64,000 nucleotides of DNA from a virus, in the IMG/VR virus record IMGVR_UViG_3300037307_000721. One strand, written 5' to 3'. This document shows, piece after piece, positions 5,466 through 19,781 of this stretch. Below the pieces are notes generated by a model that had not been told where the DNA came from, did not search any database, and worked only from the letters and a program-made list of their open reading frames with translations. Numbering within the stretch: the stretch's first letter is position 1; each line of letters starts with the position of its first letter. The translations under genes and the position numbers were made by a program.

Positions 5466-6368
5466 ATGACCCAAGGAACGATCGGCACTCCGGCAGCACC
5501 TGCCGCGCAGGTAGCGCAGCCGGCCAGCGTGCCTACCTACTACGACCCAGACCTGCACGTCGCGGGCGACGTCGTCCAGCAAGGCATCACCACCTTCCTG
5601 TTCGGCGCGGTCGGCACGTGGAAGACCACCTGGGCCGGGCAGTGGCCGAAGCCGATCTTCCTCAGCGTGGGCCCCGAGGGAGGTGACGACGCGCTGGTGC
5701 AACTTCCGACCCTGTACGGCGTGCAGATTCCACGGACCTACCACATCACCTCACCGAAGATGATGGTGGAGAAGGTGGAGCGCATCGCGCGGGACTACCG
5801 CGCGATGGACGTCAACACCGTGGTCATCGACTCGGTCACCTTCTACGTCGACCTCTGGATCGCTGAGCTGATGGAACTTCGGTACAACGACCCGAAGATC
5901 CGTGAGCGCATCGAGAAGGCGGGCGGCGAGGCGACCAACATGACGATGCGAGACTGGGGCCTCCTGGCGATGCACGTGCGTGACCTCGCCATGAAGCTGC
6001 ACAAGACTCCGCTCAACGTCATCTGGATCGCTCTCGAGAAGGAGATCAAGGAGAACGACGAACAGCGCGGCACCTCGCGGGTGGTGGCTGTCGAGCCCTA
6101 CGTCCGGGGAGAGACCTACGTCAAGCTCCCGGGCATGTGCAAGATGATCATCCACGCGAACAAGGAGTTGCGACCCGACCCGAACGTCATGGGACGGATG
6201 TTCACCCAGCCCATCTACTACACCTCCCCGAACTTCCTGACGAAGATCGTTCGGCACAAGTACGGGACAGCCTTCCCGGAGGGTCGGTTGATCGATCCGA
6301 CCCACGGGGACCTGCCCACCTTCAACGCAATCTGGAGTCGTATCGGCCGCTTCGTCTACTACACGTAG
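5466..6368 (+). CDS. AAA_24 / Sak4-like ATPase (annealing protein or SSB loader)
   Basis: FLFGAVGTWKTT, VVIDSVT, DWG and VIWIALE motifs; directly upstream of an SSB-like gene. Confidence 0.8.
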   Translation: MTQGTIGTPAAPAAQVAQPASVPTYYDPDLHVAGDVVQQGITTFLFGAVGTWKTTWAGQWPKPIFLSVGPEGGDDALVQLPTLYGVQIPRTYHITSPKMMVEKVERIARDYRAMDVNTVVIDSVTFYVDLWIAELMELRYNDPKIRERIEKAGGEATNMTMRDWGLLAMHVRDLAMKLHKTPLNVIWIALEKEIKENDEQRGTSRVVAVEPYVRGETYVKLPGMCKMIIHANKELRPDPNVMGRMFTQPIYYTSPNFLTKIVRHKYGTAFPEGRLIDPTHGDLPTFNAIWSRIGRFVYYT

Positions 6369-6428
6369 CGAGGCGGATTTCATTGGCAAGAGGGGAACAA
6401 GGAACCCCAACAACAGGAGGAACTGATC

Positions 6429-7097
6429 ATGGCATTTCTACCCGTCAACCTGCTCAACGTCCAGCCCGCCGTCGGTTTCGACTACCCCGTCGGCCGGTAC
6501 CTGCTCAACATCATCGGGACCGAGATCCGGACCAACACCAGCGGCGATGGCCAGCGGCTGGTCCTGAACCTCGAGATCGTGATGGGCCCCGGGCCGGGCA
6601 ACGTGCAGTTCCAGGGCCGGAAGACCTTCCACAGCTTCCAGCTCACCGAGAAGGGCCTGCCCTTCCTCAAGCGCTTCTTCAACGTCTGCGGCATCACCGA
6701 GGAGTTCATCAACCAGAACGGTGGCAACGTCGACAACGAGTGGCTGCACGGTCGCCAGTTCTGCGCGACGAGCGTGAAGAACGGCCAGTACGTCAACTGG
6801 ACCAACGAGAAGCCCGCGGCCGAGTGGAACCAGCAGCCCGCCCCGCAGGCTGCCAGGGCCGCGACGGCGGCCCCGCAGGCCGCGCCGCCCCCGGCGCTCC
6901 TGCAGCCCAGCCCGCAGGCCCAGGCTGCTCCGCAGCCCATGGCCTACGTCTCGCCGACCCCGCAGCCGCAGTACGCGCCGCCGCCGCAGCAGATGGCGCC
7001 GGCCGGTCTGCCCACCCCGCAGCTGCCGCAGCCGCAGGGCGGCATCCCCGTCGGCATTCCCGCCCCGGTTCCCCCTCCGGGCCGGGTCGGGCAGTAG
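6429..7097 (+). CDS. DUF669-like single-stranded DNA-binding protein with Pro/Ala/Gln-rich tail
   Basis: OB-fold-like N-terminal ~135 aa (YPVGRYLLNI...GRKTFHSF); synteny with Sak4; GGAGG RBS. Confidence 0.65.
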   Translation: MAFLPVNLLNVQPAVGFDYPVGRYLLNIIGTEIRTNTSGDGQRLVLNLEIVMGPGPGNVQFQGRKTFHSFQLTEKGLPFLKRFFNVCGITEEFINQNGGNVDNEWLHGRQFCATSVKNGQYVNWTNEKPAAEWNQQPAPQAARAATAAPQAAPPPALLQPSPQAQAAPQPMAYVSPTPQPQYAPPPQQMAPAGLPTPQLPQPQGGIPVGIPAPVPPPGRVGQ

Positions 7098-7204
7098 GCT
7101 GATGCACTGACGCCAACGGGCGGCCTGGGTGGATGCTCTCACACATAGGGGCGCATCACCCCAAGCCGCTCAGGCCGCCCGTTACTTTTTTTCAAAGGTC
7201 AGCC

Positions 7205-7474
7205 ATGCCTGAAGTCACCGAAGACATCGAGATCACCTGCGAGTGCGGGAACAAGTTCTTCTTCACCGTCAAGGACGCCGAGTTCTACCGGCGCACCTTC
7301 GGCGAGAACTTCAGTATTCCCAAGCGCTGCAAGCCCTGTCGCGAAGCGCGCAAGGCGGCCAAGGAACGCGAGGCTGCCGAGGACTTCGGCCAGGGCACGC
7401 GCAGCGGTCGCTTCCCCTCCGACCATCCCAACCAGGGCAACAAGCCCAAGCGACAGCGGAACGGCAACAGGTGA
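7205..7474 (+). CDS. Zinc-ribbon protein (zf-trcl / CxxC-x17-CxxC-like)
   Basis: ITCECGNKFFFT...FY...PKRCKPCR followed by a basic Gly-rich tail. Confidence 0.75.
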   Translation: MPEVTEDIEITCECGNKFFFTVKDAEFYRRTFGENFSIPKRCKPCREARKAAKEREAAEDFGQGTRSGRFPSDHPNQGNKPKRQRNGNR

Positions 7475-8037
7475 GCTGGACGCCCGCATACGGTAGGGAC
7501 CGCGGTCCCTACTACCACGGGCTTCTGGCACAACCCGACTGTGAGAGCTGTCCCCTTCGCTACGACGTCAAGGTCTTCCCCGACGGCCCCGTCCCCGCGC
7601 GCATCGCCTTCATCGGCGAGGAGCCTGGGCAGACGGAGATCGCCGAGGGCCGCGGGTTCGTGGGCCAGTCGGGGCAACTCCTGTGGCACCTTGCTCGCGA
7701 CGTCGGCCTCGAGCGCGACGACATCTGGGTCTCGAACGCCGCGCTCTGCGCCGCCCGCAAGGTCAAGCTCAACACCGGCGCCAATCTTCCCCAGCTCGTC
7801 GTGAAGGCCATGGCGGCCAAGGCCTGCCGCCGGCGCCTTCTCGCCGAGCTCGTCACGGTGGACCCGATCGTCGTGGTGCCGCTCGGCAACTGGGCACTGT
7901 GGGCCACCTCGGACATCCCGAACGCGCGCATCTACGCCTACCGCGGCTCGCGGATCGAAGTCGACCTGGCCAAGCTCCTCGAGCTCGTGCAGCAGGGCCT
8001 GTCGCGCTCGCCGATGCGCACCGTCAAGGAGCAATGA
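7471..8037 (+). CDS. Family-4 uracil-DNA glycosylase, N-terminal fragment (lacks HP motif)
   Basis: CESC, IGEEPG, GFVG, SNAALC, KAC, PIVVVPLGNWA and YRG; four Fe-S Cys present; GTGA coupling. Confidence 0.9.
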   Translation: MSWTPAYGRDRGPYYHGLLAQPDCESCPLRYDVKVFPDGPVPARIAFIGEEPGQTEIAEGRGFVGQSGQLLWHLARDVGLERDDIWVSNAALCAARKVKLNTGANLPQLVVKAMAAKACRRRLLAELVTVDPIVVVPLGNWALWATSDIPNARIYAYRGSRIEVDLAKLLELVQQGLSRSPMRTVKEQ

Positions 8038-8038
8038 G

Positions 8039-8299
8039 ATGCAAGTCCGAACCCTGCACAAGCAGCTGGGTGAGCTCATCGCGAAAGGCTACGGGCACAA
8101 CGACGTCGTCATCAACAAGGACACGTTCCGGCATCCGCTCGAACCAGACGGTTGCGTGCTCCTGCCCGTGATCCGGGCCGAGGCCGGCTACTTTCGCGTG
8201 CTCGATGGCGATGGCGGCACCAAGTACAACAAGGACGGTTCCGAGCGCATGCGTTCGGGTGTCATTCTGCTCGGCGAGCACGCGCCTCTGGAGAGCTGA
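8039..8299 (+). CDS. Small hypothetical phage protein inserted between the two UDG halves
   Basis: 86-aa ORF with high GC3, starts 1 nt after upstream stop, TGATG-coupled to polA. Confidence 0.8.
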   Translation: MQVRTLHKQLGELIAKGYGHNDVVINKDTFRHPLEPDGCVLLPVIRAEAGYFRVLDGDGGTKYNKDGSERMRSGVILLGEHAPLES

Positions 8300-10332
8300 T
8301 GGCCTACCTGGTGCCCACCGTCCATCCGGCAGCGCTGCTTCGCGGCGGGCACCCGATTGCCGACGTCATTCGGATGGACCTCGCCAAGGCGCATCGGCTC
8401 ACCATGGAGCCACCGCGCCAGGTCGAGAACATCGTGGTCGTCCATCCGGCGAACCCCGCCGGCGTGACCGAGTCTGTGCGAATCGGGCTCGCCTGGCTCG
8501 AGCGATGGATTTCGCTCCGCTGTCCGGTCGCGGTCGACGTCGAGACCTCGAGCCTGAACTACTTCAACTGCAAGCTCTACTCCATCGCGCTCTCGGGCTG
8601 CGACGGCGAGAACACCGCTGTGGCCTTCACGCTGATGGACCTGCGGACTCTGCCCTGGGACGCCGAGCTTGCAATGCTGGACGCACTGCGCCGGCTGCTC
8701 GCGGACCCACAGATCGTCAAGCTCTTTCACAACGCGCCCTACGACTACGCGGTCCTGCATTGCAAGAACCTCCCGGTCCACGGCCCGATCGAAGACACGC
8801 AGGGCTTCGCGCACCTCTTCCAGCCGGATATTCCGAAGGACCTCGGCTTCATCGGCCACACCTGGCTCGACGTCGAGCCGTGGAAGCTCAACCACTCCGG
8901 CGAAAAGCAGGCCTACACCAAGGACGTGATCGAGCTCCTGGTCTACAACGCGAAGGACGCGCTCAACACGATGAAGCTCCGCGCCCCGTTGCTGGCTGCG
9001 CTCGCGGACAGATGCGGCTCGCCCGACGTGATCTTCTACCAGAACGCTTTCGCGCAGCTCGCCGCACGGATGGAGCTGGTCGGCCTACCCATGGACCTGG
9101 ACATTCGGCGCAAGGTGGGCGCCGAGCAGCTGGCCAGACTTGAGGAGCTCCGGTATCGCATGCGCGAGTACCTCAAGTGGCCCGACTTCAACCCGATGAA
9201 CAAGAACCACGCGGTCGCGGCGCTCTACGACAAGAAGTACGTCGGGCTGATGCCCACCGCCTGGACGCCCAAGACGAAGCAGCCCTCGACGAAGTACGAG
9301 CACATCATCGACCACATGGAGCACGTCTTCGTCAAGGACTTCGTCGAGTACGTGGAGTCGCACCACGCCTATGCGACCCAGTACCGCGAGGCTCCGGAGA
9401 AGTCGAGCGACCCCGGACCGGGCGCTTACACGCGCGCCATGCAGGAGGACGGCCGCCTGCACGCGAAGTGGAACCCGACCGGGCAGAAGGGCTCACGTTT
9501 CTCCAGCGAGCCCAACGTGCAGAACCAGCGCAAGAAGGATCGCGTCTTCTTTCGCGCACCCTATGGCCGCGTGTTCGTCGGGGCCGACAAGGACCAGCTC
9601 GAGCTTCGGCTGGCCGCCGTCCTCTCGGGCGTGCGTGAAATCCTCGATGAGGTCGCCAAGCCCGACGGCGACCCGCACCGTCTGGCCGCGATCAACATCT
9701 ACGGCAAGGGCTTTCTCGAGCGCTCGAAGGAAGAGCAGAAGCGCATGCGCGACGCGATCAAGACCACGGTCTATGCGTCGCTCTACCGCGCCGGCGTCAA
9801 GACGGTGCACAAGTCGATCCGGAAGAAGAAGTTCCTCGACCACGCACTGCGCGCCAGCCTGACCCTCGACGTCGTCGGCCACATCTACCACAGCTACTTC
9901 GGCAAGTACGTCGAGATCCCCGCGTGGCACGATCGGAACTACGACCTCGCCCAGACGCAGGGCTACCTGGAGATCCAGCCCCTCGGTCGACGCCGGTACT
10001 TTCCGGTCCAGCCGCCGCCCTACACCGAGGTGGCGAACTGGCCCATTCAGACCACGGGTTCGGACATCGTCGGCATGGAGATGGTGCTGGTGCAGGACGA
10101 GCTCGACCGCCGGTTCCACGGCGACGCGAGCATCGTCCTGCACGGCCATGACGCGCTCTACATCGAGTGCGCCGAGCGCCACGCCGAAGAAGTCTGCGGC
10201 ATCGTGAACCGGCTCTTCGGCGCGACGCGCGTCGAGGGCCCGGCTGGCCCGGTGCTGCTCACCGCCTCGGCCGAGATCTGCAAGGACCTCAAGTTCGACA
10301 AGAAGGATGTCTGGGTGCCAAAGGCAGCCTAG
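8299..10332 (+). CDS. polA: Family A DNA polymerase with 3'-5' exonuclease; N-terminus carries the UDG C-terminal fragment
   Basis: N-terminal PTVHPAALLR; Exo I DVET, Exo II HNAPYD, Exo III YNAKD; polymerase motifs PNVQN, DKDQLELR, RDAIKTTVY and HGHDA. Confidence 0.95.
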   Translation: MAYLVPTVHPAALLRGGHPIADVIRMDLAKAHRLTMEPPRQVENIVVVHPANPAGVTESVRIGLAWLERWISLRCPVAVDVETSSLNYFNCKLYSIALSGCDGENTAVAFTLMDLRTLPWDAELAMLDALRRLLADPQIVKLFHNAPYDYAVLHCKNLPVHGPIEDTQGFAHLFQPDIPKDLGFIGHTWLDVEPWKLNHSGEKQAYTKDVIELLVYNAKDALNTMKLRAPLLAALADRCGSPDVIFYQNAFAQLAARMELVGLPMDLDIRRKVGAEQLARLEELRYRMREYLKWPDFNPMNKNHAVAALYDKKYVGLMPTAWTPKTKQPSTKYEHIIDHMEHVFVKDFVEYVESHHAYATQYREAPEKSSDPGPGAYTRAMQEDGRLHAKWNPTGQKGSRFSSEPNVQNQRKKDRVFFRAPYGRVFVGADKDQLELRLAAVLSGVREILDEVAKPDGDPHRLAAINIYGKGFLERSKEEQKRMRDAIKTTVYASLYRAGVKTVHKSIRKKKFLDHALRASLTLDVVGHIYHSYFGKYVEIPAWHDRNYDLAQTQGYLEIQPLGRRRYFPVQPPPYTEVANWPIQTTGSDIVGMEMVLVQDELDRRFHGDASIVLHGHDALYIECAERHAEEVCGIVNRLFGATRVEGPAGPVLLTASAEICKDLKFDKKDVWVPKAA

Positions 10333-10342
10333 GGAGAGCGAC

Positions 10343-10621
10343 ATGCCGAAGTTCCAGGTGGGGATTGGAATTGAGCAGACGCGCAGCACGGTGATAGTCG
10401 CCGAGGTCGAGGCGGACAACCAGGACGCTGCAGAGCACAAGGCTGTCGAGTACGTGCGCGCGCTCACGCACCTGCCCTACGGTGGCGAGCTCTCGGCCCT
10501 CGGGCGGCACGTGGAGTGGGACGACGGCTTCTTTTCGGTGACGGGCATAGATCGCGAGGAGCCTTGGGGTGACGGCGACTACAGCACGGACATCGAAGTG
10601 CCAAAGGACTTCCTGAAATGA
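10343..10621 (+). CDS. Hypothetical protein
   Basis: ORF with GGAGAG RBS; VEVEADNQDAAEHKA-type small phage protein. Confidence 0.7.
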   Translation: MPKFQVGIGIEQTRSTVIVAEVEADNQDAAEHKAVEYVRALTHLPYGGELSALGRHVEWDDGFFSVTGIDREEPWGDGDYSTDIEVPKDFLK

Positions 10622-19319: not shown

Positions 19320-19781
19320 TCATCGAACCTGGCACGAGGGACAGTGGTGGGTGTCTGGTTCGACGAAGCTCCAGCCCTCGGGGAACGCGGGCAGTACGAG
19401 CTGCGAGGTCTTCTTGCCGCAGCCGTCGCAGGTGTAGGAGACGAGCTCCTCGACCTTGAGGTTCGACGGGTGCAGCAGGCGGTCGACCTTGTCCTCGAGG
19501 TCCCGGAAGCCCTGGAGGATGGCCGCGGCCTTGAGCTTGACCCAGATCTTGAACTTCGGATGCGCGACAAGACGCTCGAGCGCACGCTTCCGGTTCGTGT
19601 GCTGGTAGCGCTCCTCGCGGCACTCGCCCACGGCGCCCGACTCGGGGTGCGTGATGCGACAGGCCGAGCTCGTCTTGTTCTGCTTCTGCCCACCCTTGCC
19701 GCCGGCGCGAAAGAACTCCAGACGAAGGTCCTTGCGCGTGACGGTGAACAGCAGCCTCTTGGCTTTCTCGGTGATGTCCAT
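19320..19781 (-). CDS. Class I release-factor-like peptidyl-tRNA hydrolase (GGQ) domain with C-terminal zinc finger
   Basis: FRAGGKGGQKQNKTSSACRITHPESG...C.EER.Q..NR..AL.RL; CDGC...HCPSC tail. Confidence 0.88.
   Translation of the reverse strand: MDITEKAKRLLFTVTRKDLRLEFFRAGGKGGQKQNKTSSACRITHPESGAVGECREERYQHTNRKRALERLVAHPKFKIWVKLKAAAILQGFRDLEDKVDRLLHPSNLKVEELVSYTCDGCGKKTSQLVLPAFPEGWSFVEPDTHHCPSCQVR

Follow-up and report, generated by a model that had tools for sequence, protein, structure and literature searches.

The 64,000-nucleotide stretch of phage DNA IMGVR_UViG_3300037307_000721 (64.7% GC; the whole stretch is called the window below) encodes a family A DNA polymerase whose uracil-DNA glycosylase (UDG) domain is divided between two genes. 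The upstream gene, here termed UDG-N, codes for a partial family-4 UDG that stops in the hairpin before the His-Pro motif, and the polymerase gene (Pol) starts with the missing strand, His motif and last helix of the UDG fold (MAYLVPTVHPAALLR); an open reading frame (ORF) of 86 residues, ORF86, lies between them. Comparison with related phages establishes the split, the position of the cut, its single ancient origin and the conservation of catalytic residues in both halves, and the two-gene arrangement is a real, ancient and widespread variant of the known UDG-PolA polymerases. We consider it likely that the 188-residue UDG-N and residues 1-36 of the polymerase rebuild one UDG domain with a composite active site, which would make UDG-N an obligate subunit of the polymerase, and we infer a glycosylase activity that depends on this docking.

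The two halves of the glycosylase domain

UDG-N matches the Pfam UDG family with an E value of 7e-16, and only over profile positions 1-97 of 141. Its sequence contains the motifs C24-x2-C27, G49-E-E-P-G53, G62-F-V-G65, S88-N89...C93, C119, L138-G139 and Y157-R-G159, ends with YRGSRIEVDL followed by a 22-residue tail, and is without the last strand, the His motif and the last helix of the fold. The motifs and the extent of the Pfam match thus bear out the claim of a first-pass annotation, made from the sequence alone, that this gene carries all N-terminal family-4 motifs and ends before the HP motif. Across 51 homologues the iron-sulphur (Fe-S) ligands C24, C27, C93 and C119 are invariant and align with the Cys residues of TM0511 (1VK2/1L9G); equally invariant are P52, G65, Y157, R158, G159 and the uracil-recognising N89, which aligns with the Asn of TM0511, and the catalytic Glu of motif A (E50) and the stacking Phe (F63) are at least 90% conserved. 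UDG-N therefore has the Fe-S Cys residues, the GE(A/G)PG motif with the stacking Phe of (P)F-x-G and, in the strand that follows helix 2, the uracil-recognising Asn by which family-4 UDGs are known, and it lacks the HP(S/A) motif with the catalytic His on the same chain and the complete fold of ~190-210 amino acids (aa). A profile of the 51 homologues retrieves 1L9G/1VK2 (TM0511) from the PDB at an E value of ~1e-24, and also 1UI0 and UdgX, with the alignment ending at RG. The AlphaFold2 (AF2) model of UDG-N has a predicted local distance difference test score (pLDDT) of 91.7, and in Foldseek it matches UdgX and TM0511 at template modelling (TM) scores of ~0.6 and 30-35% identity, as well as the UDG domain of the phiLo polymerase (9qhs_A, 9QHS).

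The remainder of the fold is found at the start of the polymerase, the N-terminus of which, MAYLVPTVHPAALLRGGHPIADVIRMDLAKAHRL, is followed by the 3'-5' exonuclease (exo) and PolA (pol) domains. The segment formed by residues 1-36, here termed UDG-C, comprises the strand YLVPT, His9-Pro10 with the catalytic His, and a helix at residues 21-35; H9, P10 and D27 are invariant in 54 polymerases, and P6, A11, L28, K30, A31 and R33 are nearly so. When the two halves are aligned by hhalign with P0190, an intact family-4 UDG of 236 aa, UDG-N covers residues 69-195 (E 2.7e-15) and the polymerase alignment places Pol residues 3-17 on residues 203-217, DVIPTFHPAYLLRSP (E 1.7e-4), the UDG-C segment aligning with VIPTFHPAYLLR of the intact enzyme. 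These positions place the cut within a hairpin loop of 7 residues that precedes the last strand. Both fragments can thus be recognised as family-4 UDG by profile comparison, and the first-pass annotation was right that the polymerase begins with the missing HP motif and last helix and that the cut falls between RG and PTxHP. In fused relatives (e.g., L037), the hidden Markov models (HMMs) of UDG-N and of the Pol N-terminus match one and the same ORF, ~8 residues apart.

Conservation and origin of the split

A protein search with the polymerase yielded 96 clusters (E below 1e-118, 40-78% identity, mostly ~670 aa), in 83 of which a P-x-x-H motif stands near the N-terminus, with the His at residue 8-12 in 78. 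The remaining 13 begin further downstream and look like late start calls or truncated contigs, and no polymerase gene call that reaches the true N-terminus is without the 36-residue segment. GExPG occurs in none of the 96 clusters. The corresponding search with UDG-N yielded 71 clusters of ~113-224 aa, most of them 170-207 aa, none of which shows an HP motif downstream of YRG. Loci were taken from metagenomes in IMG/VR and JGI and scored with HMMs for UDG-N, for Pol residues 1-40 and for the rest of Pol, and in all 22 clade loci showing both genes UDG-N and Pol are separate ORFs with the same cut site. The gap between them measures -1 to 13 nt in eight loci (L005-L009, L019, L033 and L034) and 200-2082 nt in the other 14; in four further clade loci the polymerase is not found within 1.3-3.5 kb downstream of UDG-N. 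According to the gene tables, UDG-N and polymerase directly abut in the P0005 contig, and the junctions of the P0002 and P0028 contigs hold a 116-aa and a 71-aa ORF, respectively. At the tight junctions the stop may be TGA, TAG or TAA and the relative frames of the halves differ (L005 has them in frame, with a single TGA intervening), which argues that there is no conserved recoding signal. The GC content of the clade loci, ranging from 0.42 to 0.66, suggests diverse hosts and an old event. No close relative was found among cultured phages, all tblastn matches being below 60% identity and the best polymerase matches at ~25%. The clade members show the same split and not the intact fusion that the first-pass annotation had named as an outcome that would count against its reading.

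The origin of the split can be read from the fused forms. UDG-N matches the N-terminal domain of single-chain phage UDG-PolA polymerases, such as that of Pseudomonas phage Almagne, where UDG-PolA is one 802-aa gene, and the more distant UDG matches (at most 45% identity; L037-L079 and Almagne) lie in single ORFs running into exo and pol. A maximum-likelihood tree was computed from the exo+pol region only, with the UDG part removed (54 rows, IQ-TREE quick mode, LG+G4), and rooted on three bacterial Pol I sequences. On this tree, the 28 split polymerases form one clade with an SH-like approximate likelihood ratio test (SH-aLRT) support of 100. This clade is nested among the fused UDG-PolAs, and its sister is P0097, itself a fused form (SH-aLRT 99); there are some long branches among the fused rows, and the monophyly of the split group is independent of them. 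The simplest reading is a single split of an ancestral fusion, which agrees with the UDG-PolA ancestry that the first-pass annotation had proposed. With the UDG-PolA group the clade shares the phylogenetic placement of its family A exo+pol polymerase and, throughout its members, the catalytic Glu (E50, on UDG-N) and His (H9, on Pol); it departs from the group in that UDG and exo+pol are not on one polypeptide in any of the 22 loci.

Several observations on these loci stand apart from the split itself. UDG-bearing and polymerase-domain ORFs are also separate in five distant UDG-PolA relatives (L062, L063, L074, L076 and L083), with cuts apparently elsewhere, either behind the complete UDG domain or behind exo, and these would be independent splits of UDG-PolA genes. 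In L033 and L034 (2298-3944), the stop-to-stop frame of UDG-N extends over 549 codons and the UDG HMM match begins at profile position 50; UDG-N may here be fused to, or interrupted by, an N-terminal element. About a dozen clade polymerases are 950-1160 aa long (P0003, P0006, P0015, P0018, P0040, P0047 and P0048, and further P0051, P0070, P0074, P0075, P0077, P0080 and P0096), and no more than 56-92% of the query is covered in their best local alignment. A Pfam Intein_splicing domain is present in P0096 and HNH_3 in P0074, and inteins or endonuclease insertions seem frequent in the polymerase gene of this clade. In L001, a 66%-identical relative, a Cys-rich ORF of 228 aa (6083-6769) directly after the polymerase stop ends with KKFDKKEVTVVPRAA, duplicating the polymerase's own C-terminal motif, which reads KFDKKDVWVPKAA in the window polymerase; it looks like a mobile endonuclease-type insertion bringing a replacement 3' end.

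Proposed reassembly of the domain and alternative explanations

The proposal that UDG-N and Pol reassemble in trans draws its support from a predicted complex of UDG-N with Pol residues 1-60, computed from alignments of homologues built in this analysis. The prediction reached an ipSAE of 0.89, against 0.00 for the best of three controls; the ipSAE mark is reached by 58 of 80 solved complexes and by 2 of 110 mismatched pairs, a calibration that is approximate with alignments of one's own. The runs share at least 92% of contacts, with a partner pLDDT of at least 69. In the model, Pol residues 3-7 run between strands 133-138 and 160-166 of UDG-N, where they pair with residues 133-137 on one side and 162-163 on the other, so that the polymerase would supply a strand flanked by two from UDG-N. 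Helix 21-35 of Pol packs against UDG-N 70-80; the modelled interface on Pol comprises residues 1-11, 13-14, 21, 23-32 and 34-35. The UDG enzyme is probably whole only when UDG-N and the polymerase dock.

The scheme that these observations suggest would start from an ancestor with a family A replicative polymerase bearing an N-terminal family-4 (Fe-S) UDG domain on a single chain. A cut in this gene, made in the common ancestor of a large clade at the hairpin loop that joins the final two beta-strands of the UDG fold, would have left UDG-N with the Fe-S ligands, the catalytic Glu of GEEPG, the Phe for stacking and the Asn that reads uracil. The first ~36 residues of the polymerase would have kept the last strand, the His-Pro with the catalytic His and the last helix. 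An upstream zinc-finger gene (zf), UDG-N, ORF86 and pol would be co-transcribed and translationally coupled, and after translation the N-terminal strand of Pol would insert between two UDG-N strands to give one UDG domain, the composite active site of which would take Glu50 from UDG-N and His9 from the polymerase. By analogy with known UDG-PolAs, the rebuilt domain would most likely scan the template strand for uracil during replication. The junction would since then have been a landing site for unrelated genes, ORF86 among them. A more far-reaching form of this scheme, which we offer tentatively and hold to be possible at somewhat below an even chance, is that of an obligate two-chain glycosylase with excision licensed only on the replicase, joined to a junction that acts as a conserved landing pad. 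As parts of the same joint claim, the split would be a switch confining a potentially genome-damaging activity to the replication fork, and the cargo of the landing pad (ORF86, DHH phosphoesterases and a sigma factor) would be loaded into the polymerase operon.

A number of points weigh against reassembly into a working glycosylase. The score of the complex may stem from solved single-chain family-4 UDGs that the prediction model has learned, and it shows that both pieces together resemble one UDG fold, not that two chains bind. Since UDG-N alone is modelled confidently by AF2, it may be stable, and possibly otherwise functional, without the polymerase. Taken by itself, the UDG match of the Pol N-terminus is short (15 columns, E 1.7e-4, probability 49%), a phmmer search of Pol residues 1-60 against the PDB gave no match, and a few clade polymerases have H-L in place of H-P. 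Moreover, N4-like UDG-PolAs have lost catalytic residues, and a role in processivity has been suggested for them (Czernecki et al., PMC10201439).

This last precedent speaks for the main alternative, in which the halves do reassemble, but the rebuilt domain is not a glycosylase and serves on the polymerase as a structural or processivity module or as a sensor of uracil or modified bases. Nor were uracil- or thymidine-modification genes identified in the window, which goes in the same direction. The clade, however, keeps Glu50, Phe63, Asn89 and His9-Pro10, unlike the N4-like enzymes, and residues kept on two genes across 40-78% identity are hard to explain without catalysis or specific uracil binding; we regard a non-catalytic module as rather unlikely.

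Far less probable is a decaying relic, with a disrupted UDG domain, UDG-N as a non-functional leftover and a vestigial Pol N-terminus. In its favour, the domain is interrupted, and some relatives have kilobases between the halves or, as in L029, no polymerase within 3.5 kb. A relic is hard to reconcile with the same cut in all examined members of a deep clade, with two open halves of coding-type codon bias (third-position GC 0.90) and invariant catalytic and Fe-S residues, and with the retention of the 36-residue segment in all polymerase gene calls that reach the true N-terminus.

The least credible explanation is a single chain after all, whether by readthrough, frameshifting, an intron or an intein, or else an assembly or sequencing artefact: in the window, as in L005 with its one TGA, the two halves are in one frame (1 mod 3 for either coordinate), here with exactly two in-frame stops between them (TGA 8035 and TGA 8071, the stop-to-stop frame reopening at 8074), but third-position GC in that frame across the gap is 0.38, against 0.81 in the ORF86 frame and 0.90 in the flanking genes, so that the shared frame is not coding and the ORF86 frame is, relatives vary in stops and frames and have gaps of up to 2 kb that hold unrelated genes, the polymerase starts at an ATG of its own with GGAG upstream, and the same cut recurs in 22 independent metagenomic loci. 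The in-frame arrangement to which the first-pass annotation drew attention is therefore correctly described and, since frames and stop codons differ among relatives, a coincidence. Readthrough or recoding of the two TGAs was rejected on the composition of the gap and on the varied frames and stops of relatives. A group I or group II intron at the cut was rejected because a search of 7000-9000 against Rfam gave no match at E values up to 1. A split intein or a homing endonuclease at the cut was rejected as well, no such domain of a described family being present in ORF86 or in ten tested gap ORFs of relatives.

The junction, its surroundings and known systems

The features of the locus are collected in Table 1. 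Four genes follow head to tail on the + strand, the start GTG of UDG-N overlapping the TGA of the zinc-finger gene (GTGA), and the ATG of the polymerase overlapping the stop of ORF86 (TGA 8297-8299) as TGATG; the ATG of ORF86 is preceded by AAGGAG 7 nt upstream. No promoter-like site and no + strand terminator-like site was seen in 6900-10500, which fits one coupled transcript. The zf_Tbcl gene has the same position upstream of UDG-N in L001 and in the contigs of P0002 and P0005.

Table 1. Coordinates in the window of the divided glycosylase, the polymerase and the adjoining genes
Feature	Position	Strand	Evidence
Zinc-finger gene (zf_Tbcl treble clef, 113 aa)	7133..7474	+	Pfam PF13451, E 7.5e-9
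UDG-N (188 aa), partial family-4 UDG; stop TGA 8035-8037	7471..8037	+	Pfam UDG PF03167, positions 1-97 of 141
ORF86 (86 aa), no Pfam or PHROG family	8039..8299	+	Third-position GC, 180 homologous clusters
UDG-C segment, polymerase residues 1-36	8299..8406	+	hhalign, conservation, complex model
Family A DNA polymerase (677 aa), 3'-5' exonuclease domain	8299..10332	+	Pfam DNA_pol_A_exo1 + DNA_pol_A

ORF86 is a real gene, with homologues in 180 clusters (50% identity) at E values up to 1e-3, mostly viral. It matches no Pfam or PHROG family, and the Atlas gave nothing but viral clusters without a name. Its AF2 model (pLDDT 94.7) consists of one helix and a small sheet; Foldseek found no match to it in the PDB at E values up to 0.001 (best 0.13), and a wide VIA-align search gave no convincing solved relative, the best being 4ioj_A (Z 4.5, root mean square deviation 3.6, 66 aligned). 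The ORF86 HMM has no match in any other clade junction or locus. The best-characterised context of a homologue is found in L085 (1731-6805), where P0192 lies between a Metallophos (SbcD/Mre11-like) and an SbcC-like gene, its start and stop codons overlapping or nearly abutting both neighbours; the family may prefer places where genes for partner proteins meet. ORF86 was rejected as a third component of the glycosylase. It is a lineage-specific passenger at an insertion-prone junction and not part of the glycosylase, as judged from its absence from other clade junctions, its other setting in L085 and the unrelated genes found elsewhere; of the earlier description of a separate coupled gene between the halves, the gene and its coupling stand, and a part in the design does not. 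Other junctions contain small ORFs of no known family or no gene at all (eight loci and the P0005 contig). DHH/DHHA1 phosphoesterases (RecJ-like) lie downstream of UDG-N in L010 (4902-5777) and L029 (5500-6477), the latter also having DUF1848, and a full sigma-70 family factor in L023 (2714-3778).

The replication module of the window encodes an AAA_25 helicase, an SNF2 helicase, AAA_24, the polymerase and an XPD-type helicase, and the window also encodes a terminase, Baseplate_J and T4-type baseplate genes. The match of a 189-aa ORF at 70-639 to UvrD-type helicases is confined to their C-terminal domain (UvrD_C, E 1.7e-17), and this ORF may belong to a second gene in pieces within the replication module. 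On the - strand (19320-19781), a 153-aa protein with an RF-1 (GGQ) release-factor domain (E 1.4e-19) adjoins the large terminase gene. In L003 (6792-8726), which is the P0028 phage contig, the gene for the thymidylate synthase ThyX (Thy1) contains an intein that bears a NUMOD4 endonuclease domain, and a gene for an MT-A70 methyltransferase lies just upstream of it.

Single-chain UDG-PolAs with conserved catalytic residues are known from SPO1-like and SP15-like phages, the latter including YerA41 and phiLo (PDB 9QHS) (PMC13697223, PMC10201439). The phiLo and YerA41 enzymes excise template deoxyuridine ahead of the polymerase site (Missoury et al. 2026, PMC13697223), and in phiLo the catalytic UDG residues are E53 and H178 (PMC13697223). 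The system described here resembles them in combining a family-4-type UDG with a family A exo+pol replicase and in conserving the catalytic Glu and His, and it differs in being encoded by two genes, cut before the last strand, which places Glu50 and His9 on different polypeptides. Its pol part is only ~25% identical to that of the nearest fused form, P0097, and the large inserts of the SP15 type are absent from this polymerase, as its 677 aa imply. Free-standing family-4 UDGs (TM0511 of T. maritima, 1VK2/1L9G; 1UI0 of T. thermophilus) and UdgX (6AJO and related) share with UDG-N the Cys ligands, the GExPG, F and N motifs and the fold, but they are complete chains of ~190-210 aa with their own C-terminal HP(S/A), whereas UDG-N stops at RG and one strand; the KRRIH loop of UdgX is absent from UDG-N.

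Other replicases are also found in parts. In S-SBP1-like T7-type cyanophages, PolA is split into exo and pol (Czernecki et al. 2023, PMC10201439), likewise a family A phage replicase made as two genes presumed to reassemble; there, the cut runs between domains, whereas here it passes through the beta-sheet of one domain and parts two catalytic residues. The UDGs of poxviruses (E4/D4-type) and herpesviruses are encoded in trans and bind the replicative polymerase (PMC13697223). They thus offer a parallel for a separate UDG polypeptide as a polymerase-bound subunit that couples uracil surveillance to replication, a docking that is modelled in the present case; unlike UDG-N, they are complete, fold alone and dock by their surface, whereas here the polymerase would supply part of the fold and of the active site. 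Genes in pieces are produced by homing-endonuclease insertion in nrdA of Aeromonas phage Aeh1 (mobE) and in T4-like gp43A/gp43B, with activity reconstituted. The present locus is similar in having an essential phage enzyme in two genes with intervening DNA at the cut, and it differs from both in that no endonuclease was found at the junction or in the tested gaps of relatives, nine of which have no intervening gene. A literature search of incomplete coverage did not turn up any paper on a cut within the UDG fold.

For annotation, the finding means that genes of 170-200 aa annotated as 'family 4 UDG' in these phages encode incomplete enzymes and that their polymerases are not UDG-less. The ~100 sequence clusters, with gaps from 0 to >2 kb, would, if the proposed reassembly is true, offer a well-populated test set for the way in which genes in pieces come about and last without a mobile element. 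It is only recently that UDG-PolA fusions have been shown to couple uracil removal to replication, and the clade described here suggests that a split through the glycosylase fold, with the catalytic His placed on the polymerase, can turn this coupling into an obligatory one; if true, this would be a natural enzyme gated by subunit assembly through beta-strand complementation.

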